From: a virus
Taxonomy: Duplodnaviria; Heunggongvirae; Uroviricota; Caudoviricetes
Length of the DNA stretch: 17,937 nucleotides
Virus record (IMG/VR): IMGVR_UViG_3300044642_000188
Reading direction: 5' to 3' (one strand)
In this document: one piece after another, positions 1,609 to 17,937 of the stretch
Position numbering within the stretch: position 1 is the stretch's first letter
How the letters are laid out: every line of letters begins with the position of its first letter
Program-made: the position numbers and the translations under genes
Notes under the pieces: model-generated
The model's input: only the letters and a program-made list of their open reading frames with translations
What the model was told of the DNA's origin: nothing
Database searches by the model: none

Positions 1609-4600
1609 TTATCTTAGGAAACCAGATTGGGACTGTGCTTTAATACCTAAGTCCTTGGCTAGGTCTGGGAAGAACATTGGAAGCATACCTTGAGCCTGAC
1701 TGGTTACAGGGAAAGAACGTAGTAAATACTTAATAACGTAGTTCTTTTCCTGAAGTTTCTCATCTCCTACAGCTATAGCGTAGTTCTCAATCATGAAGTT
1801 CTTAACCAATGTTTTATAGTTGGTGATGTGAGATATAGATGGGAATATACCTGAAGACACTAGACTTGTAATACTAGTTGGGTCATAGAAGTATAAGATC
1901 TCATCCTTAAGTTTATCAGAAGCTTTCAATAAGAACTTGTATTGGTTCTTAACTGTTTCATCTTCATCATCATCAGGAGCATTTGCCTTTAATCCAAGGA
2001 ATAATCCGTATAGTGTAAGCATGAATATAACGTCAATCATCTGAGACTTAATGTTCTTTCTAACTAGGTCCATGAATTCAGCCTCAGTCATTTTAAGTTC
2101 CTTGCCTGTTTCTTTTTCATAGTCAGCTTTCTTCTTCTCAAACAACGTTCTCATAAACTCAACACCTTTATCATTAGCTTGCAATGAGTTAGTTAAGTTA
2201 GTTAAGCTTCCTAATAAGTCCTCAGACATCACTCTAAACACCATTCTCATTCTACCCCACTCATAAGCGTCTGATGCAGAGTTGTATTTTAAGTTACCAG
2301 CTCTTACATCTACAAGTCTAGGAATCCAGTTCTTAAACATCATGAACGACTTACCGTAGATACTCATGTTGATTAAACGAACATCATCTTCTGATAAAGA
2401 TCCTAATGCATCTTTGGTTAAAGACTGCACCTTTCTTCTTACATCTAACACTGAGTCAGACTTTCTATCCACTCCAGGTATAACAAACTCATTGTTCACT
2501 ACAGATCCTAGTTTTAATACACCCTTTTCTTCAACAAGTTTTTTAACGTCTTCTTCAAACTTTTGTTCTAAAGCTTTTCTTTGTTCTGCTGTTCCTTGAT
2601 ATCTGTTAGCATATTCAGGAGTGGCTCTTAGAAATTCTCTAGCGTTTACAATCTTACCATCCTCAACAATAGAGTTCTTAAGGAAGCTAAAGAAGTTAAC
2701 TGTCTGTACGTGTAAGTCAGAGTTCCTCATTAATACCATTAGGAATTCTTGAATGTTCTCTTGACTTAACTTACTGAGAGACAACTTCTTAGCTATTTCT
2801 TTATTATAATTATCTGTTAGTGGTAGGAAGTATTCAAGAGCACCTATCACCAGCTTCTTATCTTCACCATTCATCTTACCAGCAGCTAGCCAAAGTTCTG
2901 TACCAATAAAATCAGTAGGATTAAAGTACTTACCTGAGTTGATGATTGATTGAGCTGTACCACCAAACAAGTTGGATGTAGCAGACAACACGTTGAGTCC
3001 TAACGCTTTAAGTTGGAATGTGTTATTCAACTGATCAATCACCTTATTGATACTAACTTGTCTTCCCTCTAGGTTTTCTGGGAATATCTTATATCCAATC
3101 TTGCTATTAATCTTCTCTCCAAACTTACCAAACTTACCTAGTAGCTGATCAAAGCTATCACTTTGTAAATACTTCTGACCATACACAATAGCTTTTACCA
3201 TGTCTTCAACAAGCTTGGTGTTCTCATTGTTATCTGGAGTGTATTGTAACACACCATCTTTGTATTCAGTTTTACCAAATACAGATGTAGCGATTGCTTT
3301 CTTATTTTTTTCTACACGTACAAGTGCTCTAGCTTGAGCCTCGATATTACTTAAATACTTATACTTAATAGCCATCTCATTGTATAAAGCTATTGTTCTA
3401 AATAAGTCTGTACTCACCTCACCTTCAATCTCTCTAGTAAAATATGTAGGGATTGTATCAATAGGTTTACCTGTAAGTGGGTTTGTCTTACCAAATCCAA
3501 CATCACCTTCGTCAATAGATATTGATCTTAGAAATTGCTCTCCTAAAGATATGTTTCCACCAAATATAATCTTTTCCATTAATCCCTTTCTTACATAAGG
3601 AAGGAACGTTCTAGCTTCAGCTTTATTGATGTAGCCAATCTCTTTGTATTCATTGTTCTTCTCTATAATATAATTATAGAAGTCAAGAGCAGCTTTGTTA
3701 TCAGGTTTGTGTAATTCTTTCCATTCATTAGATTCCCACTTAGATCTATCAGGGAACTTTTTAACTAGGTCATATTGTAACCAACCAATTGATTCTGAAG
3801 TACTTGCATCGTACTTCCTCTTAGCATCATTCTTCTCTCTTACAATTGCAGAGTTGATTTCTTCATCTGTACCTATTCTAGCTTTATCATCAATTCTCTT
3901 ATACTCTTCTTCTAGCTTCTCATCTAAGAACTTCTTAAACTCTTGAGCATCAACGTTTTCTCTAATCCAAGCATAGTCTTTATCATTGATTTTAGTTCTT
4001 AGTTCTTTATAGAACTTAGAATCAAACTCATCTATAAGTTCGTTACTATCTTTCTTCTTGATTAAGTCAAAGTAGTTTTTAATTGTTAATCCTTTGGAAG
4101 CAGCTAGTTTATCGTACGCTTCTTTTAAATCTTGTAGTCTTTTGGTCTCTGTAAGAGTATCCATAGAAGCTAAGCCAAATGCTTTGTTTGCTTTCTTAAA
4201 CAACACTTCCACTCCCTTCAACTGTAATGTGGTAGTAGAAGAGAAGAATCTAGTAATACCCTTGATAATCTTTTCAGGAGACAATAAGTTATCTACCTCA
4301 ACACTACCTGCTATAATTGTATCTGCAAACTCTTCTGCTACAGTGTTTAAATCACTTTGTAAATCTCTAGCATCATCTGCTGTATCTCTAAGCTCTTCTT
4401 TAATCTTCTTATCTTCTTCTGATAAATCTCCAGTGAATAAGAATCTAAGTTCAGAGTCTAGCTTTGTATACATATCAAGAGCATCCTGTGCTGTTTCAAT
4501 CTCTTCTTGGAAAACGTTCATGTCTGCCTCACTAAAAGATTTAGGATCTTTACCAGCCCAGTTAGCATTGTAATTATCAATTGTAGTTTTGATTTGCTTG

Positions 4601-6552
4601 TTCAGCACCTTAGCCTGATACAATAGAGGTTTAACATTCCCTTTCATTTGTAACTGTCTGATCGCTGTAAAGAGAGCATTCAACTGCTCAGCTTTAGATA
4701 GCTTCTCAGAAGGTAGTGCTTTCTTTTCAGAAATCTGTTTGTATACAGCATTAAGTTTCTCAATGAGAGCATCAATCTTTTTATTACCTGTCTTCTCTCC
4801 TTCAAGACCTACAGGGATTAGATAGTCATCTTGAATAGCTTTAACACTAACATCACCTATCTTAATTGACTGAAGTTTAGGAAGGTCTCCAGTTTTAGCA
4901 TTACCTTGAGAGTAGAATGCTTTAATAGGAATCATTCTTGTTTGCTTAAAGTCTTGAGGATTAACATTATATGTGTTCTGAAGGATAGCTTTGTATTGCT
5001 CCATCTGTAATCTCCAAGCATTCACCTTATACCAAGGAATGTCATCATACTTATCTACGTTAAGATCCATAAACTTCCAGTCAAGGATGTTTGTCTTACC
5101 ATCAGGTTCAATAGCTAAGAAGTCAATAGTACCAGCTAAGTCACGCTTAGGATCATATACAATTGCCTCAGACATAAATCTTGTACCACCATTTTCTTTA
5201 GGGAATGAATTTAAACGTTCCTTTAGATTTACCTTTAACATCTCATACATAGTCCTATCATTAGGATCTAGTTTGGAAACATATCCATCATCATTAAGGG
5301 GTTCTGTTCTTAGGAAACCGTCAGCATCTACAAACACCTCAAATGCATGTTCAATATCTTTATGTCCTGCTGTACCTTTCTCAGCTTTTAAATCATCCAC
5401 TGCTTTAGCAAACTCACTCTTAGTTAAGTCATTAGCTTTAAATCTTCTATCGTACCAATCACTAACTAAGTCAGTAACCCTTCTAAGAACTTTCACTCCA
5501 TCTACATAGTATCCATCATCCTTCTTAACAACCTTAGCTTTAAGATCCATGATAGAATCGTATATCTGTTGTTGTTTATCCTTTTGTAGATAAACATCAT
5601 TTTCAGAATCTCTAAGCTCATCAACTGTTCCAACAAACTCTCCAGATAACACTTGCATTGCAGCTTGGTCAAATCCAGACTTTTGGAATAAAGATTTAAG
5701 AGCGTTTACAATTGTTTGCCACCAGCTCTCAGCCTTGGCTATTAACTCAGGCTTTTCTGTTAAACCTTCGTTCTTATTAATAACTGTCTCTGTAAGCACC
5801 TTAGCAATAGCTTCTTTCTTAAGCTTCAATATATCAGGCTTACCATCAGCAGTTTGGTAGTTTGGATCAGATCCATATTCACGAAACACATCATTTAATA
5901 TGTTATAACTGTTGATTTCTTTCAATAGTTTGTTGAATAATTTAGGATCTAATTGCTGGATTATTTCAACAGCAAAGTGCATAGCTTCTTCTGTAAGAGC
6001 TACTTCTTCCTTACCCTCAACAACCTGTACTAACTTTTGTGTAATCAAAGCAGCACCATTAGCATCCACCTTAACACCATTCACAACAACCTTGTCCATT
6101 TGCTTAACATCAACTCCTATACGAGTTAAGAAGTCCTTAACCATAGCAATGGTTTTAGGAGAAGCTTTAGAACTCACTGTATCTGTAGGCTTTTGAAACA
6201 ATGTTCCCTGTACAGCAATCTTTTCCCATTCTTGTTGAGCAAGTGGGTTTACATCAACTTCCACCTTAGAGTTGTTACCTGCCACTGTAAGTTTAGATCT
6301 AACCAAAGACTTTCCTTCAGGAGCATTAAACTCCTTGTTTATCTTATTGATAAGCTCTAACTGTTTTTTGTTCTGACCAGTTCCTGCAGGAGAGAATAAA
6401 TATGTTGCTGTATTACCTTCACCATACTTTCTAAAAAGGTTAGACTTGGTAATGCTTTTCCATACTGAGTGATAGATGTCTGTTAATCGATCAGCCAATA
6501 TAGGATGGTCAGCTCTATAATTGTTCTCTATATACTTTACTTTACAACTCAT
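1609..6552 (-). CDS. Large crAss-like virion ejection/cargo protein (1647 aa) with zincin-like, PD-(D/E)xK nuclease and hydrophobic-helix regions
   Basis: Intact ORF starting 14 nt downstream of the RNAP gene, a position occupied by giant co-ejected proteins in crAss-like phages. Motifs EEAMH, GTIDFLAIEPDGKTNILDWK and FMMFKNWIPRLV; mostly helical composition. Confidence 0.85.
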   Translation of the reverse strand: MSCKVKYIENNYRADHPILADRLTDIYHSVWKSITKSNLFRKYGEGNTATYLFSPAGTGQNKKQLELINKINKEFNAPEGKSLVRSKLTVAGNNSKVEVDVNPLAQQEWEKIAVQGTLFQKPTDTVSSKASPKTIAMVKDFLTRIGVDVKQMDKVVVNGVKVDANGAALITQKLVQVVEGKEEVALTEEAMHFAVEIIQQLDPKLFNKLLKEINSYNILNDVFREYGSDPNYQTADGKPDILKLKKEAIAKVLTETVINKNEGLTEKPELIAKAESWWQTIVNALKSLFQKSGFDQAAMQVLSGEFVGTVDELRDSENDVYLQKDKQQQIYDSIMDLKAKVVKKDDGYYVDGVKVLRRVTDLVSDWYDRRFKANDLTKSEFAKAVDDLKAEKGTAGHKDIEHAFEVFVDADGFLRTEPLNDDGYVSKLDPNDRTMYEMLKVNLKERLNSFPKENGGTRFMSEAIVYDPKRDLAGTIDFLAIEPDGKTNILDWKFMDLNVDKYDDIPWYKVNAWRLQMEQYKAILQNTYNVNPQDFKQTRMIPIKAFYSQGNAKTGDLPKLQSIKIGDVSVKAIQDDYLIPVGLEGEKTGNKKIDALIEKLNAVYKQISEKKALPSEKLSKAEQLNALFTAIRQLQMKGNVKPLLYQAKVLNKQIKTTIDNYNANWAGKDPKSFSEADMNVFQEEIETAQDALDMYTKLDSELRFLFTGDLSEEDKKIKEELRDTADDARDLQSDLNTVAEEFADTIIAGSVEVDNLLSPEKIIKGITRFFSSTTTLQLKGVEVLFKKANKAFGLASMDTLTETKRLQDLKEAYDKLAASKGLTIKNYFDLIKKKDSNELIDEFDSKFYKELRTKINDKDYAWIRENVDAQEFKKFLDEKLEEEYKRIDDKARIGTDEEINSAIVREKNDAKRKYDASTSESIGWLQYDLVKKFPDRSKWESNEWKELHKPDNKAALDFYNYIIEKNNEYKEIGYINKAEARTFLPYVRKGLMEKIIFGGNISLGEQFLRSISIDEGDVGFGKTNPLTGKPIDTIPTYFTREIEGEVSTDLFRTIALYNEMAIKYKYLSNIEAQARALVRVEKNKKAIATSVFGKTEYKDGVLQYTPDNNENTKLVEDMVKAIVYGQKYLQSDSFDQLLGKFGKFGEKINSKIGYKIFPENLEGRQVSINKVIDQLNNTFQLKALGLNVLSATSNLFGGTAQSIINSGKYFNPTDFIGTELWLAAGKMNGEDKKLVIGALEYFLPLTDNYNKEIAKKLSLSKLSQENIQEFLMVLMRNSDLHVQTVNFFSFLKNSIVEDGKIVNAREFLRATPEYANRYQGTAEQRKALEQKFEEDVKKLVEEKGVLKLGSVVNNEFVIPGVDRKSDSVLDVRRKVQSLTKDALGSLSEDDVRLINMSIYGKSFMMFKNWIPRLVDVRAGNLKYNSASDAYEWGRMRMVFRVMSEDLLGSLTNLTNSLQANDKGVEFMRTLFEKKKADYEKETGKELKMTEAEFMDLVRKNIKSQMIDVIFMLTLYGLFLGLKANAPDDDEDETVKNQYKFLLKASDKLKDEILYFYDPTSITSLVSSGIFPSISHITNYKTLVKNFMIENYAIAVGDEKLQEKNYVIKYLLRSFPVTSQAQGMLPMFFPDLAKDLGIKAQSQSGFLR
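1984..2040 (-). other. Putative membrane-interacting helix in the 1647-aa protein (aa 1505-1523)
   Basis: MIDVIFMLTLYGLFLGLKA: 19 mostly apolar residues in an otherwise highly charged protein, followed by acidic PDDDEDE. Confidence 0.55.
4900..5490 (-). other. PD-(D/E)xK (RecB/AddB-like) nuclease domain in the 1647-aa protein
   Basis: Ordered motifs RVTDLV, KGTAGH, SEAIV, GTID477, D491-W-K493 and Q516-MEQ-Y520 (QxxxY). Boundaries approximate. Confidence 0.8.
5790..6090 (-). other. Degenerate zincin-like domain in the 1647-aa protein
   Basis: ALTEEAMHFAV (E188-E-A-M-H192, 5977-5991), EExxH in place of HExxH, with a downstream KKEAIAKVL helix resembling the third-ligand helix. Boundaries approximate. 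Confidence 0.55.
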
Positions 6553-6566: not shown

Positions 6567-9500
6567 TTATTGTCCACAAGGATTAGGGTTATCAGCTCCT
6601 TCTAAATCGCCTTCAAATTCAGCAGGAGGTTTAGGCATATTGTTTAACGCTGCAGCATTGATTCTATCTTCATACTGACCAATTGTTTCGCCAGAAACTT
6701 TTGATATAGTCTCGTGTGCTTTCTCATGTAACAAAGCAAACGTTAAGAACTCGTTAAATGATTTGAACTGTTCTGCAGGAAGTGCTGTAGCTTTACTACC
6801 ATCTGCCTGTGTAACAGGACTGGTCCAAGCTTTATCATCAAACTTCTTCTGCATTAGATCTTTAACCATTTGGATCTTCTCTCCTTTGTTTAAGTTTCTC
6901 ATTGCTACAGGAACATCTTTGTTTGTAGAGATTTCATCAACAAACTCTATAGCTGTATTCAAGAAAGACTTATCAGCTTCTAATTGCTCTAAAGTTACAT
7001 ACGCACTTAAACCTGGTTTAGGTTTTAATTCTTCTCTTACTTCCATTAACAGTTTAGGAAACTCTGTTCTCCATTTAGATTTAGGAGACTCTTGTGTATG
7101 GGTAAGTTCAGCATTTCCTGTAGCTAACAAAGCTTTAAGAGCTGATGGATTTTGTTCAAAAGAAGCTTTCATTAATTCCTTCATTATTCTTGAAGAGTTT
7201 GCATCCCATGCTTTTGTATTTAATCCTTTAATTTTTCCTCCTAATTCTTTTGCATTAGCTCCTGAGTATTCTTGAAACTTAAGTAACATATCATAAAAAC
7301 TAGGAGTAAGACCAAATTCAGGAGAATTATAAACTGAGCTATATAGTAGTTTAGCTGCTTGAAATGCTCCTTCAACATTTTCAAAGCCTACACCATCTGC
7401 TGTTGTAAAAGGTCTATTAGCAAAGTTACTTAACTCAGCATTCTCTCCTGTACCTGCATAGATGTTAATCTTTTTAGAGCTATCTATAACTGGTTGAGGT
7501 TTAGTTGATTGAGTTTCATTAACTTGACCAAACCTAGCTTTAAACTGTTGTTCATTAGAAATATCTTGACCAGATATGTTTCTAAATTTCCAACCTTTAG
7601 GAGCTAGTATAGTAGTAGGTATTCCTAATTTAATTCCAGCTTTAGCTCCAGCTTCATCAAATCCTGTTTGTCCACCAGTTCTAATTGATTCTATTTTGTT
7701 CTTAAGATTAGGAGATTCTACAATACCTTTTAATATTCTATAAGTCATTAAATCTACTTCTTCTTGATTCCATCCAGCTTCTCTCATAGTGTATATACCA
7801 TTTCCTGCTATGTTTAATGTTTTAGCGTTCACTGAATTCAATTGGTCTACTATTACATTAACTTGAGATGTTATATCAGCTTTATTAATATCAGAAGTTT
7901 CCGTCTTTGTAGGAACAGCTAAAGGTATATATTTCTTATTTTGTTCTAATACAGATGACTTAGTTAACTTCTCACCAGCAGAATTAAAGTTGTAAGCAAA
8001 AGCAATAGTTGCATCAGCACTTGCATTTTTGATAGTTCTATTTTTATATCCTGATGTAGGTTCTTCTTGAAACTCTATAACTGGTTGAGTTTCAGTGGTT
8101 ACAGGTGCAATATCATATACATATAGTCTACCCTTACCATTAACCCAATCTTTAGTCTGTTGGTACATAAGATCATTCTCAGATTTTGCACCATCATCCT
8201 TAAGCATTTTTTCTTTACCGCCAGCTTCTTCAATAGTTAAAAGACCACGATTTGTAATATTATAAGGTAGTCCACCTATAGTTCTAACTTGTGTTTGACC
8301 TACAGGAATACCTATTTCATCAGCTTGTCTTTGAGAACGTATTGTAGCAGTTTTAGTACCAGCTTTAATCTTCTCAATATTAGCAGGTTGCATCTGAATA
8401 GTCTTATCCATAGATTGTAAAGGTACAACTTTAGGTTGAGTTTGCCCACCATAATGTGCAATTATTTCTTCGTCTGTAATCTCATTAGCAATCTTTACAG
8501 TGCCATTGTTTAATACAGAAGGAATATTATTCTCATAGTATTCAGAAGCTAATTGACCGTCACCATATAGATTAATTAATTTATATACATGGCTACCCAC
8601 TCCTTTATCATCATACACAATCACTGGACTACCGTCAGCATATTTAACCTTTTGATAACCGTATATGTCTTTTAAAGATAGGTCACCTTTAGATTTCTTA
8701 ATTGCAAACATTGAGTTGGTTACATTTTCACCATTAGTCATGTTAACTCTTGTTCCTGTAAAAGGATCTTCAACCACTCTAGGAACCTTAACAAAATCAT
8801 ATTTCAAGCTAGCTGCATTATAACGCTCACTCAATAACAATATCTTTCTGTCTGTAGACTTGATTCCTAAGTTCTTAATGTTAGGGAAAGCTGGAGAGAA
8901 GTATTGGTAAATGTCATTATCATATATATCCACAGCAATAGGAGACTCCTGAGCTAAGAAGAACTTAGGCTTCACCTTACCAAATATCTTTTCATCCTTC
9001 CAGTTGTTCCTTTGGAATGCACCTTGGGCAAATGATAGTAATGAATCATTAGATACAAGAGGAGCTATTACTGGAGCAATGATTTTGCTATAGTCTTCAA
9101 TAGGAATAATGTTCTTTATAGATATACCTGTTTGGTATGTACCCTGGAGAATAGATAATTTAACTATGTTTTTGTACAGCTCTGTAGTAGATGAGTTATC
9201 TCTGAGCTCTCTCATATATCCTGTATATAAGTTCTCATCGTAAGCATCTTTGTTATTAGCTAACAGTTTAATACTCTTAGCACCATCCACTCTATCAGAA
9301 CTAACCACTTGTAGATCGTTTAAGATTGTAAGTCCTGGGTTATTACGCTTAGCCTCAGCTAGTTGAGAAGCTACAGATGTACCTGCATCAACTAACAATG
9401 CTTTAATCTCACTGTTTAAACCACTCTTAGTTTGGATGATGTAGTCTAGGAAAGAAGCTTTTAGTTTGTTAGCAATTCTATCATAGTCATCAGCACTTAA

Positions 9501-12500
9501 GTATTGATCTTTTGCAAAAGACTTTAATATTGAATTAGTTATAACTCTAAACTCATCCTTCTCAAGCTTGAATATCTCACCCATAGCTTCCATAGAAGAA
9601 GCAATAAGCTCAGCCTGCTTACCTATAAATGAAGCATCTAACAACTCATTTACAGAACTGATAATGTTAATATCTTCAGCAACTTCTGTTCTTGTTTCCT
9701 TCTTAAACAATGCATCACCACTTCTAAACTTGGTAGTGTCATAGTTAATCGCTTGACCAAAGTTAAATAGATACTCAGCCATCTTAGCGTATTTCAAGAA
9801 CTCGTTTAGTATAACATGTTGCTCAGCATTCTTAGGTTCACTAAGTTCTCCTTTAGAATAGTATTCTGAAATGTTATCTTCAAGAGTGTCAACGCTAACA
9901 CCTGCAGAGCTAATCAATGTTCCAGTTGTAACAAACTTAGACTTAACAGCATCTATGTTCTTTTGGTTAAATAAACCTCTAGCTCCTGTGTTATCTAAGT
10001 ATGTTAAATACTCCTTAACAATTGGTTGGTTCATGAACATTGCTGTTGTCTCAATTGGAACACCAATTCTTTCTAAGTACATAAATGTACCTACAGCTAA
10101 GTCAGAACCTATAATCTTAAGGATGTATGGATCTTTAGCCACATCCACAAACGCTGTTGCATATCCAGATAGTTTACCAGAAATATACTTACCAGCCTTA
10201 TCTAGAATTGAAGATAAGGATATACGTTCTTCACCATTAACATTCACTGTATTATGTGGAAGAGCCACCTTACCATCACCTAATATCTTTCTATCAACCT
10301 CATTAACAAGCTCAAACTTACTAGGATCAATATATGCAGAAATCTTTTGTGTAAGAGAATGGTTAGTGATGTTTACAGCAGCAATACCCACCCAACGCTT
10401 AGCAGTTACGAATGCGTGTCTAAGTTTAGTTAGATAGTTTCTATCAAGCATCCTGTTCTTGATAGTGCTTTCATCATACCCTCTTAACTTATCTAATTTA
10501 GAAGCTAAGTCTTTTAAACCAGCATCTCCTATGGGAGAAATCAATCTCTCAAAGTTCTCTGGAAGTGTAAGAAGTTTTGTTAAAGAATCGTAGTATTCAT
10601 TCTCTAAAGACTTCTTATACATGTCTCTAACAAACTTATCTTTCAACTCAGCTTGTAGAGTGGCATCACCCATTTTTTCTAGTTGCTTCATAATAACATC
10701 CTCAAAGTCTGTACTATCAGAAACATCTTCTAATAAAGCATCTAATAGATTAGAATATCTATCTACAAGGTTATTAGGATCTTCCAATCCATAGGTTAAT
10801 ATCTGTGCAGCTTCTAATAAGTTAGCCTTTTTAATTTTCTTGTTTTCCAAAGTTTCATCAAATACATTAGCATAGAACTCTTTAGTAGCTTCTTCAGAAC
10901 CTTTGTATTTAACTAGACGGATGTCACCATTCTTATCTAAATAAGTAGCCTTTAAATAAGTGTTTAATTTATCTATATCAAAGTCAGATCCAGCCTTTGT
11001 AGTGATTTCAGAAGGAACAACAATAGTATCTCCCATAAATTGTGGTAAGAAACCTTTCACTCTAAACACCTCAATATTACTTAATTCCTGTGTAGGAATA
11101 CGGAAACCAACTCCCGTAAGAATAGAACGTCCTTCTTCTGTACTGTTTAAATAGTTAAGTAGGGCCTCATCATTAGGAAACTTCTTACCAAACTTCACTT
11201 TAAACCAATGTGGTAATAACACCTCACAATAAGGTTGGTCCTTAGTATAGAACTTAAGAGTGTCGTCTGTTAATCTTACCTTCTTCTTATCTTCTTCAGA
11301 CAGGTTATTGTATTCTACTTTAGAGATTTCTTTAAATCCATCTTTTGTTTTAAGAGCAATCTTTCTACCAGCTTTCGCATCCTCCCATCCTGTTACAGGA
11401 ACCTGCACCTTAGGACCACCATTCATCTTAGGAGATGTGATGGCTTTATCCACCATTGAATAAAGAATATTTCTAATCTGTACGTAGGCATTAGATGCTT
11501 CAAATGGAATTCTAAATTGACCATTCTCATCTAATTGTACAGTATCTTTAGCATTGTCAGACATCTCTCTTCTAAGCATTTCATACTCAAGAAGTTTAGA
11601 TACGTCTACATTATTTGTAAGTTTAAACCCATCACCAAGATCTTCAATACCAAGCTTTCTTAATAGCTCGTTATATCCATTCTCGTGCATCCTATCTAAT
11701 ATCTCTTTGTTACGAGAATATTCTTTAGCTGCCTCAGGACTTGTAGCTACACCATTGTTAAATAAGTTTAAGCTAGCTAGTTTAGTAACCTGAGAACCAC
11801 GAGTTTGTTGCTTAGATCCTTCATAGCTATTCTCCACTTGAATACCATAAGCACTCCAAGGAACTTGTATCTTATTATCAAATCCAGCATCATTTAGACT
11901 ACCATCTCCATTATACAAACTGTACAATGTTTCAGTGCCCACCTTTCTGCCAGACTCAAATATAACATAGCCTATGTCTTCCTTCATCATCTTAACATAA
12001 AGCTTCTCTAGGTTAGTTCCTTCTACAGCCTTGTAGTATAAAGGCATTTGAGAGAACTTATCTAACACTAAATCAAACTGAGTAGAACCATACTTGTTAC
12101 CAGTTACAATAGGTTTCAACACCTCTGTAACATATTTTGGTTCTGGTTTAGATATAGTCTTCTCATCCTGAGCTCTTAGTGAATCATTAGTATAAGCGTA
12201 ATCACCCTTGGCAGCCATTTTATTTCTAGTGTAAGCCATTTGCCATTGGTGCCAATCTTCAGCCTCATCAGACCATTGACCATTCTTATTCTTAACCTCT
12301 CTATATGTACCATCCATTAAATAAGAAGCAGCATCAGCCTCATTAGTCTCACCTAATAATCTACCTAACACCTTTACATCCTTTAATGTAATAGTGTTGG
12401 TGTAAGGTTTGAACTTCTGGAATCCTGGATCTCCTTCATTCAATTCAATCTCTCCAGCTTTATTTAGTTCCTGATTAAGGAATGTGTTATAGTCTGGGAA

Positions 12501-15500
12501 ATCAAATGTAGTTCTTCTACCAGATAAGAAAGACTTAACACGTTTAGTTTCATCTAGGATGTTATCTTTAATCTTAAATTGATATGGATCACCAAATAAG
12601 ATTTTGTGGTATTCTATATTGTTGATTATATAGTTTGCATTAGCAAAACTTATAATGTTCTTTAACTTTTTCTCAGAAAGCTTAAACTTATTAAACTTCT
12701 CTGCTTTTGCAAATACATCATCTAGTTTAGGATAAGAGTATTCACCCTTAGTGTTTACATAGATCTCTCCGTTTGCAGCAAGTGTTTTGAATGTAACATC
12801 AGATACACCATCAATGTAATCCTTAATAGACTTGTTGATGTCTCCTATATTAGCTTCAATGAATGCATTGATTTCTTCTTCAGATGCCTCTTTAGCAATC
12901 AAATTATTGATACTAGCTAATGTATCTTTAGAAAGAATATCATTAAAGAAGCGAAGCTCAGAAGCTTTGTTTCCTACATTCATAAGTTGAGTTCTACTAG
13001 CAGCAGTTAGTGCTAAGTTGATCTCATCCTTTAAATATCCTTTAAAGGTTGTATAAATCTTACCCCAAGCTGTTCCGTTTTCAAATGCTGAGAAACGAAC
13101 GTTGTTACCTAGGTTCATCATCCATTCTGTAGAACCATCCGCAGGAATAAGTACATAGTAGTTACCATTAAGGTTTTGGTTAAACTCTTGTGTGAATCTT
13201 TCTCCTTCAGTTAATCTACTAGTAGCTGTACCATCATTCTCATCTACAAGCTTAGTTCCCTGGATGTAACTAACCTTTATAGATCTAATTCTATTACCAT
13301 CTTCATCAAAGAATAATCCACCCTTCTTTAACACTTGGCTACTTGCAGAGAAAATATCTTTAAGCTCTGGTCTAGCTTCAAGAAGCTCATCTAATGTATT
13401 TGCTTCATTAAATAAGTTCTCAAATAAAGAAGGAGCATTATTTTCTGCAAATGAGTTTGTTCTTCTGTTCTCAACGTTAAAATAGGTAGCATCAATGTTA
13501 GGGTTGGTCACCTTTACATATAGCTCAGAGATGAGACTTAATGGACCATTAATGTCTAAAACCTTACCTGTAACACTTAATATATCATTCTTTCCTCTAA
13601 GAGAAACAATCAATCCACCAATAGCGTTAGCAAACTTATTCTTTTGAACAGTCTTTAACTTTGAATAGACTTCCATAGGGAATTCAATACCTAGATTACC
13701 TAGGAATGTTATCATCTCTTCAGGAGTCTTATTTGACACATTAGTTAAGTCTCCAACTTTGTAAGTCTTTGTACCACGGTCATAGCTAATTAAAGAACCT
13801 TCCACTTTAGATAAAGCTTTCATGTTCTCTATCCAACCTTCTTTAACTGAGTTAGCAGCAGTGTATAAGTTAGCAGATCCTGTGTACACCTCATCTCCAC
13901 TAACGTATTGAATAAGTGCATCAGGCTTTTGCTTGGTGAATGTTTGATAGAAGTTAACAAACAATCTCCAATCCTGTGCTTCAAACTTAGAGAAGTCAAT
14001 AACCATGTTGTTTCTATTACCACCCACACGAGTGAATAGACGTACATAGTTACTATCATATTTAGCAAGATCAATCAGCTTATCTACAACAGAAGTAACC
14101 TTTGTTGTATTAGCTAGCTTATCTAACACTGTAGCAAATGATCTAGTAAAGTTTAATAGCTTGTATCCCATTACGTCAGATAGTTTCTGAGCAGGGAGAG
14201 CCATACTACTTGCGTTCTCTTGATTACTTGGTGTGGTTTCAGTTAATGTACCAATAAGTAACTTGATAGCAAACGAAGAACTCTTCTTCCAATCTGTAGA
14301 GAATGGTTCAGGAGCGTAATCATTTTTATTTACGTTCTCATCATTAATACTAATACTTTGATTCTCATCAAACTCAAGTTTAAATGTACGTAAGAACTCT
14401 TTTGTTTTATTAACTAATTGATTCCAAGCGTTTTCACCTAACATTTCCAATTTGCCTTCTTCAGCATATTGACTTTTAACTTGGTTAAATATATCAGGAG
14501 CTGTAAGTTTTTCTGGATTGTACAAAGATGTATTAGTTCCAAACATAATTTGGAAAGATCTAGCTGTAATATCCTGAACAAACTCATGTGTTTGTTTTTC
14601 ACTTAATCCTTCAACAGCTCTGTATTCAGACATGTCATTCTTAACACTCTCTGGAACAGTCATTTCTTTAAACTTACCTGCATTAATAGCTTTGAATAAC
14701 TCTTGCTTTTGTGTAGGTTTGTTTACAAACTGTTTAACAAACTCAATAATGTTTCTAAAGAAGTTTAAGATTCTTTCACCAATGCTTCTAGCAGGAAGTT
14801 TACCCACCTTGAAATCAGCAAAGTCATCAGCTATTCTTTCCTTAGCTTGCTTATCTGTAGCCTGGTCATAAGCAATCTTCTTACCAGATTGTCTATCTGT
14901 AAATGTACCAGGCTTAGATTTAAACTCATCTAATATAGCTTGTCTTTGTTCTTCTGTAAGGAAAGCTTTCCATATACCCTCAAATACCTCGTGGTATTCT
15001 GTACCTCTAGCGGCTGACTTATAGAACTTAGCCACACCATTCTCAAATGCACCCCAAGCTTTCTCACCATCATTTGTACTGATGATGTTATCTAATATCT
15101 CAAATGGAATACCTGGAACATTTTCTGCAGCCCATTTCTTAAATATTTCTATCTCAGCATCATTAATTCTTTCTACACCATTAGCACCCACTCTTCTATA
15201 CTCACTGTTTGAAGGAGGTTTAGTGTTACCAAAGTTCTTAGGAGCAGTAGGTCCTTCTAACTCAGCTAGTAATTCTTTTAATTCCTCTACACCTTTAGAT
15301 GTTCTTTCTAAAGTTTCTTCATATTCTTTGATCTTTTCATTTATTGGGCCAATCATAGACGTATTAGACAAAACAGATGGTAGTTTAAGTTTTTCTCTAT
15401 TTTTAACTAATTCTTCTATTGCTTCTTTTAATCTTGGTATAATATCGTTCTCACGCTCAGATATTGCCATTTTTAAACGATATATAGTATCAGCTTTTTT

Positions 15501-17936
15501 CTTAGCATCTTCAGCAGAAACTACAGGAGCAGCAGTAACAGGAGCAACAATTGGTTGGGCTTCCATAGCTTCAATTTGCTCACGCATCTCTTTACGAGGA
15601 TCTTGTAAATAATCCCAATAGTCACGTTGCATTCTACCAGCAGCCTTCTCTATAAAGTAGTGTTTAATTACACCCATTAAAAGACCTTGACCAAGATTAT
15701 CAGTATCATGAGCTGCATACTGAGTAGCCCCTGAATCAGCTCCAGATAAAAAATGTCTTAGGGTTTCAGCTTCTCTTAGATTAAGACCTTCTATAGGTAT
15801 GATAGAGTTTTTAGTCACAATATCATAGCCATAATCACTTCCCTGTCCTAATCTTTCATCTCGATTAAAAGCATAGTTTGGATTATTTTTGAAGTTTCTT
15901 TCCCCATTTTCCTGAAAATAAGTAGTAAAATTATAACTCTCTTTAGTTTCAGGATTGTTGATATATATTTTTTCTGGACGACCATTTGGAGCAAATTCAA
16001 GAACCAAATTATTTAAAGATACAATTGGTATCTTCATATCCATTTCAATAGTCTTAGCTATTTTTTCACGTTGTTCAACTGTAAGCTTTGGATCTTGTAG
16101 CTGCTGTTTTTTAGTATCTAAATACTTCTGCACAGCAGGTATGTACTTTTCAAATCTTTTAGATTGGGCATCTAACAACTCCTGTGCTTTAGAAAGCATA
16201 TCTAAACTAGACTGTATAACAGGAGATATTAAAGCAGGTACAGCAACTGTAGGTTGTTCTTCTGTTTCTAAAGACTCTGTAGAAGTAACCACTGCAGGAG
16301 CAGCCTCTGTACCATAAGGAGTGGTTTGTGTAACTGTAGCAGCTGTTGTTACAACTGGAGCAGCAGCTTGTTGATTTTTTATAGCCTGTAAACGAGCACT
16401 AATGTTTAATGCTGCAAACTGTAGAATAGAATCTTCTACACTCTTTGTAGCATCAAACAATGGTTTACCATCAGTACCCATTGTATTCTTTAAAAAATCT
16501 AAATAAGGTTTAGCTTTCTCAGCATTTGCAGCAATTGCTTGTATCCTAGGATTAGAAATAACTTCAGCAACAACATTACCATCACTGTTAATTGTTGCTG
16601 TAAACTTAGTTTCACCTAGAGGTTCCTTTAGAGATATTGTATTTTCTGTTCCATTTACAAAGAACTCACCTAGCTTATCAGCAGATGGTGCTGCTTCAGC
16701 CACAGGAGCTGCTGCTGGGGCAGCCTGCTGTACAGGAAGATCTAATCCCTCAAGGATAGCATACTTCCTAACATAGTTGTAAGGAACTGCGTCTGTAGGT
16801 TTGTTTACATATGTAGATAGAGGAGTGTCTGTAATAGAACGGTTCTTACCATTAGGATACTTACTAGATAGTAAATATGATTGATAGTTAACCCACTCTC
16901 TGTTCTGTAGGAATCCATCTTCAAAGTATAACTCAATGAATGGTTCACTAGTCTTCTTTAAAGATTCATTGTTAACATTGTTAAATGTACCTTTTAGCTT
17001 GCTAACAATAGCAGCTTCATTACTAGCAATGTCAGCAAAGTTATATTTATCACCACCAATATACAGCTCCATAGATCTTTCATCTATATGTATTTGGTTA
17101 TCTTTAGTGTCCTTACCTTTTCTCCAATAGAGAACATTCTGTAAGAAGTCTGTATATAATCTATTAAGTTCAATAGTTTCACCCTTAGCATTCTGAGACT
17201 GCACTTCTTCTGACAATAATCTAATAGCTTCAAAGATGCTCTTAGCCTCATCGTTTGTAAAGGTTCTGTTATCTACGTATTGTAATGTATCACCATATTG
17301 TAACACAGGTCTACCTACAGGGAACTTTAAGTTCTCTCCATTGTAAGCAAGTGTTCCAGTGGTAGAAATAACAATTAAGTTCTCTTGAGTAGCAATCTTC
17401 TTCTGAGGAACAAGATTATCTCCTACAAACTTTCTTTCATTTCTATCAGTAATAGGCACACCCTTAGATACACCAAAATCATAAATTGTATAGGTTCCTG
17501 CAGGAGCTGCAAATAACTCAGCTCTTTTAACAGTCCATGCTCTAGACATTTCTTTTGCCTGAGCTTCTTCTTGTTTTCTAAAACGTGGATCTCCTTTACT
17601 ATTATATAATGCAGCAGTAGGCATTGTTGAGAACACTACAACATTCATATCAACAGGTTGACCCACCTCAGTAAGTTGTTTACCATCTTTGTCTACAAAG
17701 TAGTTCTTACCATTAGATTGAACTACATATACAGCAGCAACTAAACCATTCTCTACACTAGTATCTGTAGATCCAGATAACTCACCTAATCCTTTTAATC
17801 CTAGAGATTCTTCTTGATTAGGAGTTACAAGGATTATCTTCATGTTAGCCCTGTTACCAAAGTTTTTAACATTGTTTAAGAACTGTCTAGATCTAACCTG
17901 ATGTGGTTTAGCTAGTTGTTCCCAAGTTTCAGAAGC
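6567..17936 (-). CDS. Giant virion-packaged DNA-dependent RNA polymerase polyprotein of crAss-like phage type (partial at 5' end; at least 3789 aa)
   Basis: Catalytic motif GSDFDIDKL (D2287-D2291, 10971-10985) preceded by GFRIPTQ. Other crAss-RNAP-like blocks: ILFGDPYQF, LDKFSQMPL, FESGRKVG, GSQVTKL, GGPKVQVP, FVDVAKDPY. The frame is open from 17843 to the window edge (ASETWEQLAKPHQVRSRQFLNNVKNFGNRAN-MKIIL), so the real start probably lies outside. Confidence 0.92.
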   Translation of the reverse strand, partial: ASETWEQLAKPHQVRSRQFLNNVKNFGNRANMKIILVTPNQEESLGLKGLGELSGSTDTSVENGLVAAVYVVQSNGKNYFVDKDGKQLTEVGQPVDMNVVVFSTMPTAALYNSKGDPRFRKQEEAQAKEMSRAWTVKRAELFAAPAGTYTIYDFGVSKGVPITDRNERKFVGDNLVPQKKIATQENLIVISTTGTLAYNGENLKFPVGRPVLQYGDTLQYVDNRTFTNDEAKSIFEAIRLLSEEVQSQNAKGETIELNRLYTDFLQNVLYWRKGKDTKDNQIHIDERSMELYIGGDKYNFADIASNEAAIVSKLKGTFNNVNNESLKKTSEPFIELYFEDGFLQNREWVNYQSYLLSSKYPNGKNRSITDTPLSTYVNKPTDAVPYNYVRKYAILEGLDLPVQQAAPAAAPVAEAAPSADKLGEFFVNGTENTISLKEPLGETKFTATINSDGNVVAEVISNPRIQAIAANAEKAKPYLDFLKNTMGTDGKPLFDATKSVEDSILQFAALNISARLQAIKNQQAAAPVVTTAATVTQTTPYGTEAAPAVVTSTESLETEEQPTVAVPALISPVIQSSLDMLSKAQELLDAQSKRFEKYIPAVQKYLDTKKQQLQDPKLTVEQREKIAKTIEMDMKIPIVSLNNLVLEFAPNGRPEKIYINNPETKESYNFTTYFQENGERNFKNNPNYAFNRDERLGQGSDYGYDIVTKNSIIPIEGLNLREAETLRHFLSGADSGATQYAAHDTDNLGQGLLMGVIKHYFIEKAAGRMQRDYWDYLQDPRKEMREQIEAMEAQPIVAPVTAAPVVSAEDAKKKADTIYRLKMAISERENDIIPRLKEAIEELVKNREKLKLPSVLSNTSMIGPINEKIKEYEETLERTSKGVEELKELLAELEGPTAPKNFGNTKPPSNSEYRRVGANGVERINDAEIEIFKKWAAENVPGIPFEILDNIISTNDGEKAWGAFENGVAKFYKSAARGTEYHEVFEGIWKAFLTEEQRQAILDEFKSKPGTFTDRQSGKKIAYDQATDKQAKERIADDFADFKVGKLPARSIGERILNFFRNIIEFVKQFVNKPTQKQELFKAINAGKFKEMTVPESVKNDMSEYRAVEGLSEKQTHEFVQDITARSFQIMFGTNTSLYNPEKLTAPDIFNQVKSQYAEEGKLEMLGENAWNQLVNKTKEFLRTFKLEFDENQSISINDENVNKNDYAPEPFSTDWKKSSSFAIKLLIGTLTETTPSNQENASSMALPAQKLSDVMGYKLLNFTRSFATVLDKLANTTKVTSVVDKLIDLAKYDSNYVRLFTRVGGNRNNMVIDFSKFEAQDWRLFVNFYQTFTKQKPDALIQYVSGDEVYTGSANLYTAANSVKEGWIENMKALSKVEGSLISYDRGTKTYKVGDLTNVSNKTPEEMITFLGNLGIEFPMEVYSKLKTVQKNKFANAIGGLIVSLRGKNDILSVTGKVLDINGPLSLISELYVKVTNPNIDATYFNVENRRTNSFAENNAPSLFENLFNEANTLDELLEARPELKDIFSASSQVLKKGGLFFDEDGNRIRSIKVSYIQGTKLVDENDGTATSRLTEGERFTQEFNQNLNGNYYVLIPADGSTEWMMNLGNNVRFSAFENGTAWGKIYTTFKGYLKDEINLALTAASRTQLMNVGNKASELRFFNDILSKDTLASINNLIAKEASEEEINAFIEANIGDINKSIKDYIDGVSDVTFKTLAANGEIYVNTKGEYSYPKLDDVFAKAEKFNKFKLSEKKLKNIISFANANYIINNIEYHKILFGDPYQFKIKDNILDETKRVKSFLSGRRTTFDFPDYNTFLNQELNKAGEIELNEGDPGFQKFKPYTNTITLKDVKVLGRLLGETNEADAASYLMDGTYREVKNKNGQWSDEAEDWHQWQMAYTRNKMAAKGDYAYTNDSLRAQDEKTISKPEPKYVTEVLKPIVTGNKYGSTQFDLVLDKFSQMPLYYKAVEGTNLEKLYVKMMKEDIGYVIFESGRKVGTETLYSLYNGDGSLNDAGFDNKIQVPWSAYGIQVENSYEGSKQQTRGSQVTKLASLNLFNNGVATSPEAAKEYSRNKEILDRMHENGYNELLRKLGIEDLGDGFKLTNNVDVSKLLEYEMLRREMSDNAKDTVQLDENGQFRIPFEASNAYVQIRNILYSMVDKAITSPKMNGGPKVQVPVTGWEDAKAGRKIALKTKDGFKEISKVEYNNLSEEDKKKVRLTDDTLKFYTKDQPYCEVLLPHWFKVKFGKKFPNDEALLNYLNSTEEGRSILTGVGFRIPTQELSNIEVFRVKGFLPQFMGDTIVVPSEITTKAGSDFDIDKLNTYLKATYLDKNGDIRLVKYKGSEEATKEFYANVFDETLENKKIKKANLLEAAQILTYGLEDPNNLVDRYSNLLDALLEDVSDSTDFEDVIMKQLEKMGDATLQAELKDKFVRDMYKKSLENEYYDSLTKLLTLPENFERLISPIGDAGLKDLASKLDKLRGYDESTIKNRMLDRNYLTKLRHAFVTAKRWVGIAAVNITNHSLTQKISAYIDPSKFELVNEVDRKILGDGKVALPHNTVNVNGEERISLSSILDKAGKYISGKLSGYATAFVDVAKDPYILKIIGSDLAVGTFMYLERIGVPIETTAMFMNQPIVKEYLTYLDNTGARGLFNQKNIDAVKSKFVTTGTLISSAGVSVDTLEDNISEYYSKGELSEPKNAEQHVILNEFLKYAKMAEYLFNFGQAINYDTTKFRSGDALFKKETRTEVAEDINIISSVNELLDASFIGKQAELIASSMEAMGEIFKLEKDEFRVITNSILKSFAKDQYLSADDYDRIANKLKASFLDYIIQTKSGLNSEIKALLVDAGTSVASQLAEAKRNNPGLTILNDLQVVSSDRVDGAKSIKLLANNKDAYDENLYTGYMRELRDNSSTTELYKNIVKLSILQGTYQTGISIKNIIPIEDYSKIIAPVIAPLVSNDSLLSFAQGAFQRNNWKDEKIFGKVKPKFFLAQESPIAVDIYDNDIYQYFSPAFPNIKNLGIKSTDRKILLLSERYNAASLKYDFVKVPRVVEDPFTGTRVNMTNGENVTNSMFAIKKSKGDLSLKDIYGYQKVKYADGSPVIVYDDKGVGSHVYKLINLYGDGQLASEYYENNIPSVLNNGTVKIANEITDEEIIAHYGGQTQPKVVPLQSMDKTIQMQPANIEKIKAGTKTATIRSQRQADEIGIPVGQTQVRTIGGLPYNITNRGLLTIEEAGGKEKMLKDDGAKSENDLMYQQTKDWVNGKGRLYVYDIAPVTTETQPVIEFQEEPTSGYKNRTIKNASADATIAFAYNFNSAGEKLTKSSVLEQNKKYIPLAVPTKTETSDINKADITSQVNVIVDQLNSVNAKTLNIAGNGIYTMREAGWNQEEVDLMTYRILKGIVESPNLKNKIESIRTGGQTGFDEAGAKAGIKLGIPTTILAPKGWKFRNISGQDISNEQQFKARFGQVNETQSTKPQPVIDSSKKINIYAGTGENAELSNFANRPFTTADGVGFENVEGAFQAAKLLYSSVYNSPEFGLTPSFYDMLLKFQEYSGANAKELGGKIKGLNTKAWDANSSRIMKELMKASFEQNPSALKALLATGNAELTHTQESPKSKWRTEFPKLLMEVREELKPKPGLSAYVTLEQLEADKSFLNTAIEFVDEISTNKDVPVAMRNLNKGEKIQMVKDLMQKKFDDKAWTSPVTQADGSKATALPAEQFKSFNEFLTFALLHEKAHETISKVSGETIGQYEDRINAAALNNMPKPPAEFEGDLEGADNPNPCGQ
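6600..7004 (-). other. C-terminal zincin-like metallopeptidase domain (intact HExxH)
   Basis: FALLHEKAHET (H3706-H3710, 6714-6728) followed by YEDRINAAAL, which supplies a candidate third Zn ligand (Glu). Confidence 0.65.
7026..7476 (-). other. NADAR (YbiA-like) domain
   Basis: INIY...LSNF...DG...VEGAFQAAK...AKELG...W...IMKELMKASFEQNPSALKALLATGNAELTH...LLMEVREEL, collinear with E. coli YbiA as recalled (INFY...FSNF...DG...SEHYFQAQK...KFEQH...LLLAT...LLMELREQL). Confidence 0.85.
7483..8089. repeat. Exact 16-bp direct repeat TCTATAACTGGTTGAG flanking the SLOG domain
   Basis: Copies at 7483-7498 and 8074-8089; offset 591 nt (197 codons, in frame); both encode QPVI linkers. Confidence 0.85.
7530..8070 (-). 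other. YpsA-like SLOG domain (permuted motif order)
   Basis: YKNRTIKNASADATIAF (R3269), LNIAGN (7800-7814) and IRTGGQTGFDEAGAKAGIKLGIPTTILAPKG (7662-7679 for TGGQTG): motifs of the cpYpsA / former 'putative MoCo carrier' SLOG family. Confidence 0.75.
8101..8406 (-). other. ASCH/PUA-like domain
   Basis: IQMQPANIEKIKAGTKTATIR (GTKTATIR 8337-8360) matches the ASCH signature GxKxx(T/E)xR with its preceding strand-helix; ends in a YVYDI strand; about 100 aa. Confidence 0.7.
9700..13200 (-). other. Double-psi beta-barrel RNAP catalytic core region (approximate limits)
   Basis: Spans from YYVLIPADGS to AINYDTTK and includes RIPTQ (RIP at 11094-11102) and DFDID (10971-10985). A DxDxD-bearing core is established for two-barrel polymerases. 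Confidence 0.75.
14800..15150 (-). other. N-terminal zincin-like domain of the RNAP protein with altered HExxE motif
   Basis: AWGAFENGVAKFYKSAARGTEYHEVFEGIW (H951-E955, 14979-14993), then ERIADDF. A zincin-like domain ahead of the RNAP core is known in crAss-like polymerases. Confidence 0.7.
15205..16730 (-). other. Ala/Pro/Thr-rich linkers separating unidentified inserted segments in the RNAP N-terminal region
   Basis: QQAAPAAAPVAEAAPS (~16680-16730), QQAAAPVVTTAATVTQTTP...EAAPAVVT (~16239-16373), AQPIVAPVTAAPVVSAE (~15510-15560), GPTAPKNFGNTKPPSNS (~15205-15255). Confidence 0.6.
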
Positions 17937-17937
17937 A

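Follow-up and report, generated by a model that had tools for sequence, protein, structure and literature searches.

Linkers as probable joints for in-frame cassette exchange at the 3′ end of a crAss-like virion RNA polymerase gene

The stretch of DNA analyzed here (17,937 nucleotides (nt), referred to below as the window) comes from a virus of the Caudoviricetes, IMG/VR record IMGVR_UViG_3300044642_000188. A giant gene on its minus strand ends in a series of small accessory domains joined by short linkers, and these linkers and the domains between them are the subject of this report. The product of the gene has 3758 amino acids (aa) when counted from the first ATG within the window (P0001), and its full length is 4826 aa (P0004 in the protein collection). 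A DFDID motif is located at residue 2287 of P0001 (window 10971-10985) and is also present in 73 of the retrieved homologues; a motif of the DFDxD type is the catalytic motif of gp66, the virion RNA polymerase of the crAss-like phage phi14:2 (10.1101/2020.03.07.982082). On the strength of this motif and of the giant single polypeptide, we assign the gene to the crAss-like virion RNA polymerases, and by analogy with phi14:2 and crAss001 the polymerase is probably a virion component that is ejected into the host. The sole DNA similarity to deposited phages is weak (137-156 nt at 71%, within the part encoding the SLOG domain described below) and points to the “putative RNA polymerase” of Bacteroides crAss phages. 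Freshwater metagenomes, those of lakes among them, are the source of most related contigs. A metagenome scan and a genome scan together gave one close relative, contig L031, and one distant contig, L130 (JBBAJX010000014.1). The latter, with 56% identity in the polymerase body and 49% in the C-terminal domain, was binned with a metagenome-assembled genome of Sediminibacterium sp. (Bacteroidota), which offers a hint about the hosts that this phage group may infect.

The tail of the polymerase consists, in order, of the end of the conserved body (..AHYGGQTQPKVVPLQSM), an ASCH-like domain, the linker ETQPVI, a SLOG domain of the cpYpsA type, the linker ETQSTKPQPVI, a NADAR domain, the linker KPKPG and a 147-aa domain with an HExxH motif (Table 1). 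Both SLOG (PF12694) and NADAR (PF08719) exceed the Pfam gathering scores (41.3 bits vs 26.2, E = 1.7e-10, and 47.5 bits vs 35.1, E = 3e-12, respectively), and NADAR also matches YbiA in the PDB (2b3w, E = 4e-4). The match to ASCH (PF04266) is below the gathering score (13.2-13.5 bits vs 21.2, E = 0.12-0.15), with the N-terminal motif alone matching, and a PDB sequence profile search with the ASCH alignment gave no match. An AlphaFold2 (AF2) model of this part, built from an alignment of eight sequences (seven homologues), reached a predicted local distance difference test score (pLDDT) of 89.8, against 47.5 for the single-sequence model. In a Foldseek search of the PDB with the former model, the top 12 rows are of the ASCH family (probability 0.8-1.0, template modelling (TM) score about 0.5, E from 4e-3 upward), led by PH0355, Escherichia coli YqfB and Zymomonas ASCH (ZmASCH). 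Going by the modelled fold, ASCH-like appears to be the best name for this cassette. The C-terminal domain shows a weak match to Pfam DUF4344, a “putative metallopeptidase”, and its nearest named Atlas clusters are the small zinc peptidases M85 and GtgA/PipA (0.89-0.90, to be taken as a lead only). It is probably a small zincin-like metallopeptidase and could have a role in processing of the array, in packaging or in ejection.

Table 1. Position of the polymerase gene, its cassettes and its linkers in the window
Feature	Position	Strand	Remarks
Giant virion RNA polymerase gene, crAss-like (predicted)	6567..17937	minus	Open reading frame continues past the right end of the window
J0, end of conserved body, QTQPKVVPLQSM, including the first handle AAACTCAACC	8409..8444	minus	QTQPKVVPLQ kept in all variants, also those without a cassette
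ASCH-like cassette	8094..8408	minus	P0001 residues 3146-3250; Pfam match weak, AF2 fold ASCH/PUA-like
J1, linker ETQPVI (GAAACTCAACCAGTTATA)	8076..8093	minus	Holds most of the 16-nt exact repeat
SLOG cassette (circularly permuted YpsA family)	7518..8075	minus	P0001 residues 3257-3442; Pfam PF12694, phrog_10774
J2, linker ETQSTKPQPVI	7485..7517	minus	Second copy of the 16-mer, GAAACTCAA repeat, AAACCTCAACCAG copy of the 12/13 pair
NADAR cassette	7026..7484	minus	P0001 residues 3454-3606; Pfam PF08719; PDB YbiA
J3, linker KPKPG (AAACCTAAACCAGGT)	7011..7025	minus	12/13 match to J2
Conserved C-terminal domain, 147 aa, HExxH motif (HEKAH)	6570..7010	minus	97-100% identical in all close variants

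Short repeats in the linkers had been listed in an earlier note on this DNA, and all four pairs are found exactly where it placed them. GGTTGAGTTT occurs at 8434-8443 and 8083-8092 with a spacing of 351 nt around ASCH, the 16-mer TCTATAACTGGTTGAG occurs at 8074-8089 and 7483-7498 with a spacing of 591 nt around SLOG, TTGAGTTTCA occurs at 8085-8094 and 7509-7518, and CTGGTTGAGGTTT at 7490-7502 equals CTGGTTTAGGTTT at 7013-7025 in 12 of 13 positions with a spacing of 477 nt around NADAR. It is also evident that the repeats are in frame, as had been claimed: each pair lies in one codon phase of the minus-strand open reading frame (ORF), and 351, 591 and 477 nt are all multiples of three. The linker peptides, QTQP(KV) at the end of the body and the three given above, read as the note had them, and all close relatives with a NADAR cassette have the last of these as KPK[PA]G. 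At the DNA level, the linkers may be seen as variants of one motif family, ..GAA/AAA ACT CAA CCA/TCA .. CAA CCA GTT ATA GA...

To compare the array among close relatives, we retrieved homologues by a search with the polymerase tail. Relatives with 95-99% identity in the body and 97-100% in the C-terminal domain show at least eight different cassette arrangements. These include no cassette but a 12-residue spacer (P0011 and P0012; contig L031), ASCH only (P0007), a 197-aa domain X only (P0009 and P0010), X and NADAR (P0006, and P0008 with a mosaic NADAR), ASCH, an AlkB-type oxygenase and NADAR (P0005), ASCH, SLOG and NADAR (the window), and ASCH, a further cassette Y, SLOG and NADAR (L001 and L002). 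Neither X nor Y has a Pfam match. The comparison of relatives that the earlier note had proposed as a check thus shows a variable tail, with different domains placed between near-identical flanks. In P0008, the NADAR cassette (residues 4073-4218, 70% identity overall) has ends identical to the window type and a replaced middle, and these features suggest that homologous exchange takes place inside the cassettes too.

The junctions of P0005-P0011 were mapped at the protein (residue) level, and the comparison of junctions at the DNA level covered three relatives. The end of ASCH (..TTETQ/P) is followed by VIEFQ (SLOG), VIDNST (Y) or TAAQSEQP (spacer), and the ASCH/TAAQSEQP junction of P0007 sits at J1. 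The end of X (..ALTQ) is followed by STKPQPVID (NADAR) or PTAAQSEQP, and that of SLOG (..NETQ) by STKPQPVID. At J2, the partner upstream of TQ/STKPQPVID is SLOG in the window, X in P0006 and P0008 and AlkB in P0005. The three unrelated upstream domains ASCH, X and SLOG thus swap downstream partners at the same Thr-Gln. A conserved short motif thus marks the exchange points, as TQ(P/S) and QPVI lie at the junctions of different cassette pairs. Between the window and L001/L002 (98-99% identity), BLASTN gives two segments that overlap by 23 nt. In L001, ACTgAAACTCAAcCAGtTATAGA and ACTaAAACTCAAtCAGcTATAGA, a direct repeat with 20 of 23 positions equal, flank the in-frame cassette Y of 213 nt (71 codons), and the window bears at this site (J1) a single chimeric copy, in which the left-hand variants are joined to the right-hand flank. 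An insertion or deletion (indel) of this form is what recombination or slippage between direct repeats classically leaves behind.

Cassettes are also shared at a much greater distance. The SLOG cassette of contig L082 shows 91.7% nucleotide identity with that of the window over 556 nt, and 20 of the 185 codons differ synonymously; the match extends from I-(E/N)-FQEEP to KARFG, the 1300 aa upstream are 31-33% identical, and there is no further DNA similarity between the two. Phages with polymerase bodies of 36-47% identity carry X and AlkB cassettes at 77-81% identity. In P0013 and P0014 the order is reversed, NADAR preceding SLOG, with TQPVI ahead of each (TQPVIDSS occurs in the distant P0014), and many relatives at a greater distance have TQP-type linkers at their cassette borders, among them TQPSTSV, a form that recurs. 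These sequence comparisons show that cassettes move between distant lineages. The best explanation of the array, which we consider likely, is that the linkers are sites of in-frame cassette gain, loss and exchange, and that the DNA they share favors such events.

The main rival explanation holds that the linkers resemble each other owing to peptide function. They would be cleavage sites for the HExxH domain or another virion protease, by which the cassettes are freed after ejection, or else required flexible spacers, and both the DNA similarity and the recombination would be by-products. Linkers of the TQP/QPV type do recur at cassette borders in relatives with bodies 40-60% identical, a conserved HExxH domain is part of the same polypeptide, and proteolytic processing of crAss polymerase polyproteins has been proposed, with a zincin-like protease adjoining gp66 (10.1101/2020.03.07.982082). 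Selection on the peptide would account for how widely the motif is conserved. However, the synonymous positions of the linkers are more alike than the peptide demands. The longest common substrings of the four linker windows, summed over all pairs, amount to 56 nt, whereas shuffling of synonymous codons with the protein kept yields 39.0±4.1 nt (P = 0.0007 for the linker set). Both copies of the 16-mer contain the minor codons CCA and ATA, and ACT codes for Thr at 17 of the 23 TQP sites of the fetched loci, against a background of 42%. Because the linker set exceeds the codon shuffles and the minor codons are shared, the earlier view that shared synonymous positions reflect a common DNA origin is upheld, though modestly. 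Moreover, P0013 and P0014 have TQPVI linkers but no match to the C-terminal domain of the window, and the repeat-flanked indel is not accounted for by peptide function. We regard this explanation as unlikely; it is compatible with linkers that serve as DNA handles, and the two can coexist.

Chance is a less probable source of the similarity. Low-complexity linkers rich in Thr, Gln, Pro and Lys would, under biased codon usage, come to look alike, and the array would vary by illegitimate or flank-driven homologous recombination, with selection for intact domains. Some observations fit this: the 10-mers are individually ordinary (19 repeat families of at least 10 nt are found within 2.4 kb), the junctions of L031 are without microhomology, and the gene bears another exact 16-nt repeat in frame, TGTAAACAAACCTACA (peptide VNKPT, P0001 residues 345 and 1039), which lies in the polymerase body and is distant from the domain borders. 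A single 16-mer repeat in 11 kb is near chance level. On the other hand, none of 4000 sets of non-overlapping windows drawn from the same gene reaches the observed 56 nt (35.0±2.8 nt, maximum 47), and in the 3789 visible residues TQP/TQS peptides are confined to J0, J1 and J2, three of the four junctions. The 20/23 repeat is located at a real indel, and in the tail of L001 the four best 23-nt self-matches (22, 21, 21 and 20 of 23) are all linker to linker and all in frame, whereas codon-order shuffles of this tail reach at least 20/23 in 2% of trials. An assembly artefact, in which metagenome assemblers collapse or mis-join strains at short repeats, is very improbable: all sequences are metagenome assemblies and repeats of 16-23 nt do lie at the junctions, but such repeats are far shorter than assembly k-mers, the frame is intact through thousands of codons in every variant, L001 and L002 show the same array in two samples, P0009 and P0010 are on separate contigs, and X, AlkB and Y, being absent from the window, cannot come from mis-joining of its own sequence.

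If the linkers are sites of cassette gain, loss and exchange, the 3′ end of the polymerase gene would be a hypervariable slot between a conserved body and a conserved C-terminal HExxH domain, and this slot would carry single-domain cassettes (here ASCH-like, SLOG and NADAR) joined by short Thr/Gln/Pro linkers. Recombination within the linkers would add, remove or exchange whole cassettes while the reading frame is kept, mainly through exchange between co-infecting relatives and occasionally between the linkers of one genome. Possible agents are a short-homology recombinase, slippage during replication, or template switching.

Several results weigh against this explanation, or narrow it. The earlier note expected recombination between the window's own repeat pairs to remove exactly one domain, and none of the three simple deletion products is found among the relatives. 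Where the window has 1386 nt, the cassette-less L031 has 18 nt, and no microhomology is evident at the junctions; some events thus do not use the handles. The variable boundary on the body side lies after PLQSM, 6-7 codons downstream of QTQP. The idea that every junction is swappable goes too far: breakpoints recur at TQ(P/S) and QPVI, but the body-side QTQP and KPKPG are not observed breakpoints. Most junctions (P0005-P0011) are resolved to the residue only. The 16-mer taken alone shows a modest excess at the codon level (P = 0.023, synonymous-codon shuffle). As exact DNA, the 17-nt handle is found in IMG/VR only in L001/L002 and in five unrelated chance matches, and it is thus not widespread. 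A search for RecT, ERF and RecA in the nearest record (79% complete) found none of them, and host recombination or replication slippage remain options. Finally, domain-level indels that survive must break between domains, so the position of breakpoints in the linkers is partly a survivorship effect.

What the varying arrays, the recurrent junctions and the 213-nt repeat-flanked indel support is the role of the linkers in gain, loss and shuffling; that linker homology promotes these events, rather than marking where viable events survive, is what we infer from them. A purely intragenic accordion is insufficient. In-frame gain and loss are seen, but most of the differing cassettes are absent from the window, and exchange between genomes must therefore dominate. 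A possible though doubtful extension is that the linkers are a dual-purpose standard joint, both a handle for DNA recombination and a cleavage site for the C-terminal zincin-like domain. Such handles would be common to cassettes that circulate as a pool among freshwater crAss-like phages, and a cassette plugged in at this joint would be freed automatically as a separate enzyme after ejection.

Some further features of the cassettes were observed. Stand-alone homologues of 105-108 aa cover the ASCH-like cassette end to end, and their initial Met falls within a few residues of the cassette start (window 8406-8414, QSM/D; alignment A1). The ASCH and X cassettes both start directly after ..PLQSM, and the Met of this motif may derive from the initiation codon of a small gene that formerly stood alone and was captured in its entirety. 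Contigs L114, L115, L116 and L123 (about 4001-4336) match the second half of SLOG only (query residues 80-192, from ..ITLNIAGNGIYTMKG) and the sequence preceding the match is unrelated; these may have a permuted SLOG or half of the domain. In P0052, an ASCH-like cassette (residues 1575-1685, 70% identity) is located far upstream, directly before the motif PKNF..TKPP.NSEYRRVG, which is also present in the N-terminal part of the window gene at about 15200-15300 (..PKNFGNTKPPSNSEYRRVG). Judging by this placement, these polymerases may have a further slot for insertions.

If cassettes are exchanged in this way, a phage can quickly re-equip an essential and probably injected protein with different enzymes, leaving the reading frame unbroken, and a concrete and testable mechanism would be available for the domain diversity long noted in polyvalent proteins. 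The cassettes would be injected helper or counter-defence enzymes, and ASCH-like, SLOG, NADAR, the AlkB-type oxygenase and others are, by their predicted domains, candidates for early counter-defence or for RNA or nucleotide repair. The crAss-like phages are an abundant and mostly uncultured group, for which the cassettes provide a catalogue of candidate activities. In addition, the natural joints (CAACCAGTTATAGA bases among the shared linker DNA) suggest points for domain exchange in model crAss-like phages.

In polymorphic toxin loci such as CdiA and Rhs, a conserved short sequence marks the point at which recombination exchanges variable C-terminal modules, and the window array likewise has a short conserved motif at its module exchange points. 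It differs in having several cassettes in series instead of one terminal toxin and a conserved domain beyond the variable part, and its cassettes are predicted nucleotide- and ADP-ribose-processing enzymes rather than toxins. No orphan cassette or immunity ORFs were seen downstream of the polymerase gene in the window, where a 1647-aa protein and a fibre-like protein are encoded; the 1647-aa protein (window 1609-6552, minus strand) has a weak PHROG match to the exonuclease family phrog_298 (E = 3.4e-4, residues 339-532).

[quoted passage not shown] The window protein resembles them in that ASCH-like, SLOG, NADAR and HExxH domains follow the polymerase, a number within the range of two to fifteen domains used to define such proteins, and that at least eight architectures occur among close relatives. 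Unlike them, the carrier here is an essential RNA polymerase of the crAss type, and the variation is resolved among genomes of 95-99% identity to repeat-flanked junctions. The account of polyvalent proteins contains neither the word “linker” nor a DNA joint, nor any mention of NADAR, SLOG or ASCH (PMC5512222).

The phi14:2 protein gp66 is the RNA polymerase itself, with genes for large virion proteins next to it, which in some phages are fused into a polyprotein, and with a zincin-like protease nearby (10.1101/2020.03.07.982082). The window gene shares with gp66 the giant protein with a DFDxD motif, whereas the array of accessory cassettes and its linkers are not described in the crAss polymerase literature searched, and our literature searches found no description of linkers of the window type. 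In DNA viruses, SLOG and NADAR are found together and as fusions, and early processing of immune signals derived from ADP-ribose has been proposed for them; the viral exemplars are “typically standalone proteins” (PMC9503650). The present case differs from these viral SLOG-NADAR-Macro associations, as SLOG and NADAR are in-frame cassettes of a virion polymerase. Variable multi-domain polyvalent proteins are known from phages, and what is new here is a linker-joined cassette array on a crAss-like polymerase, with repeat-flanked junctions.

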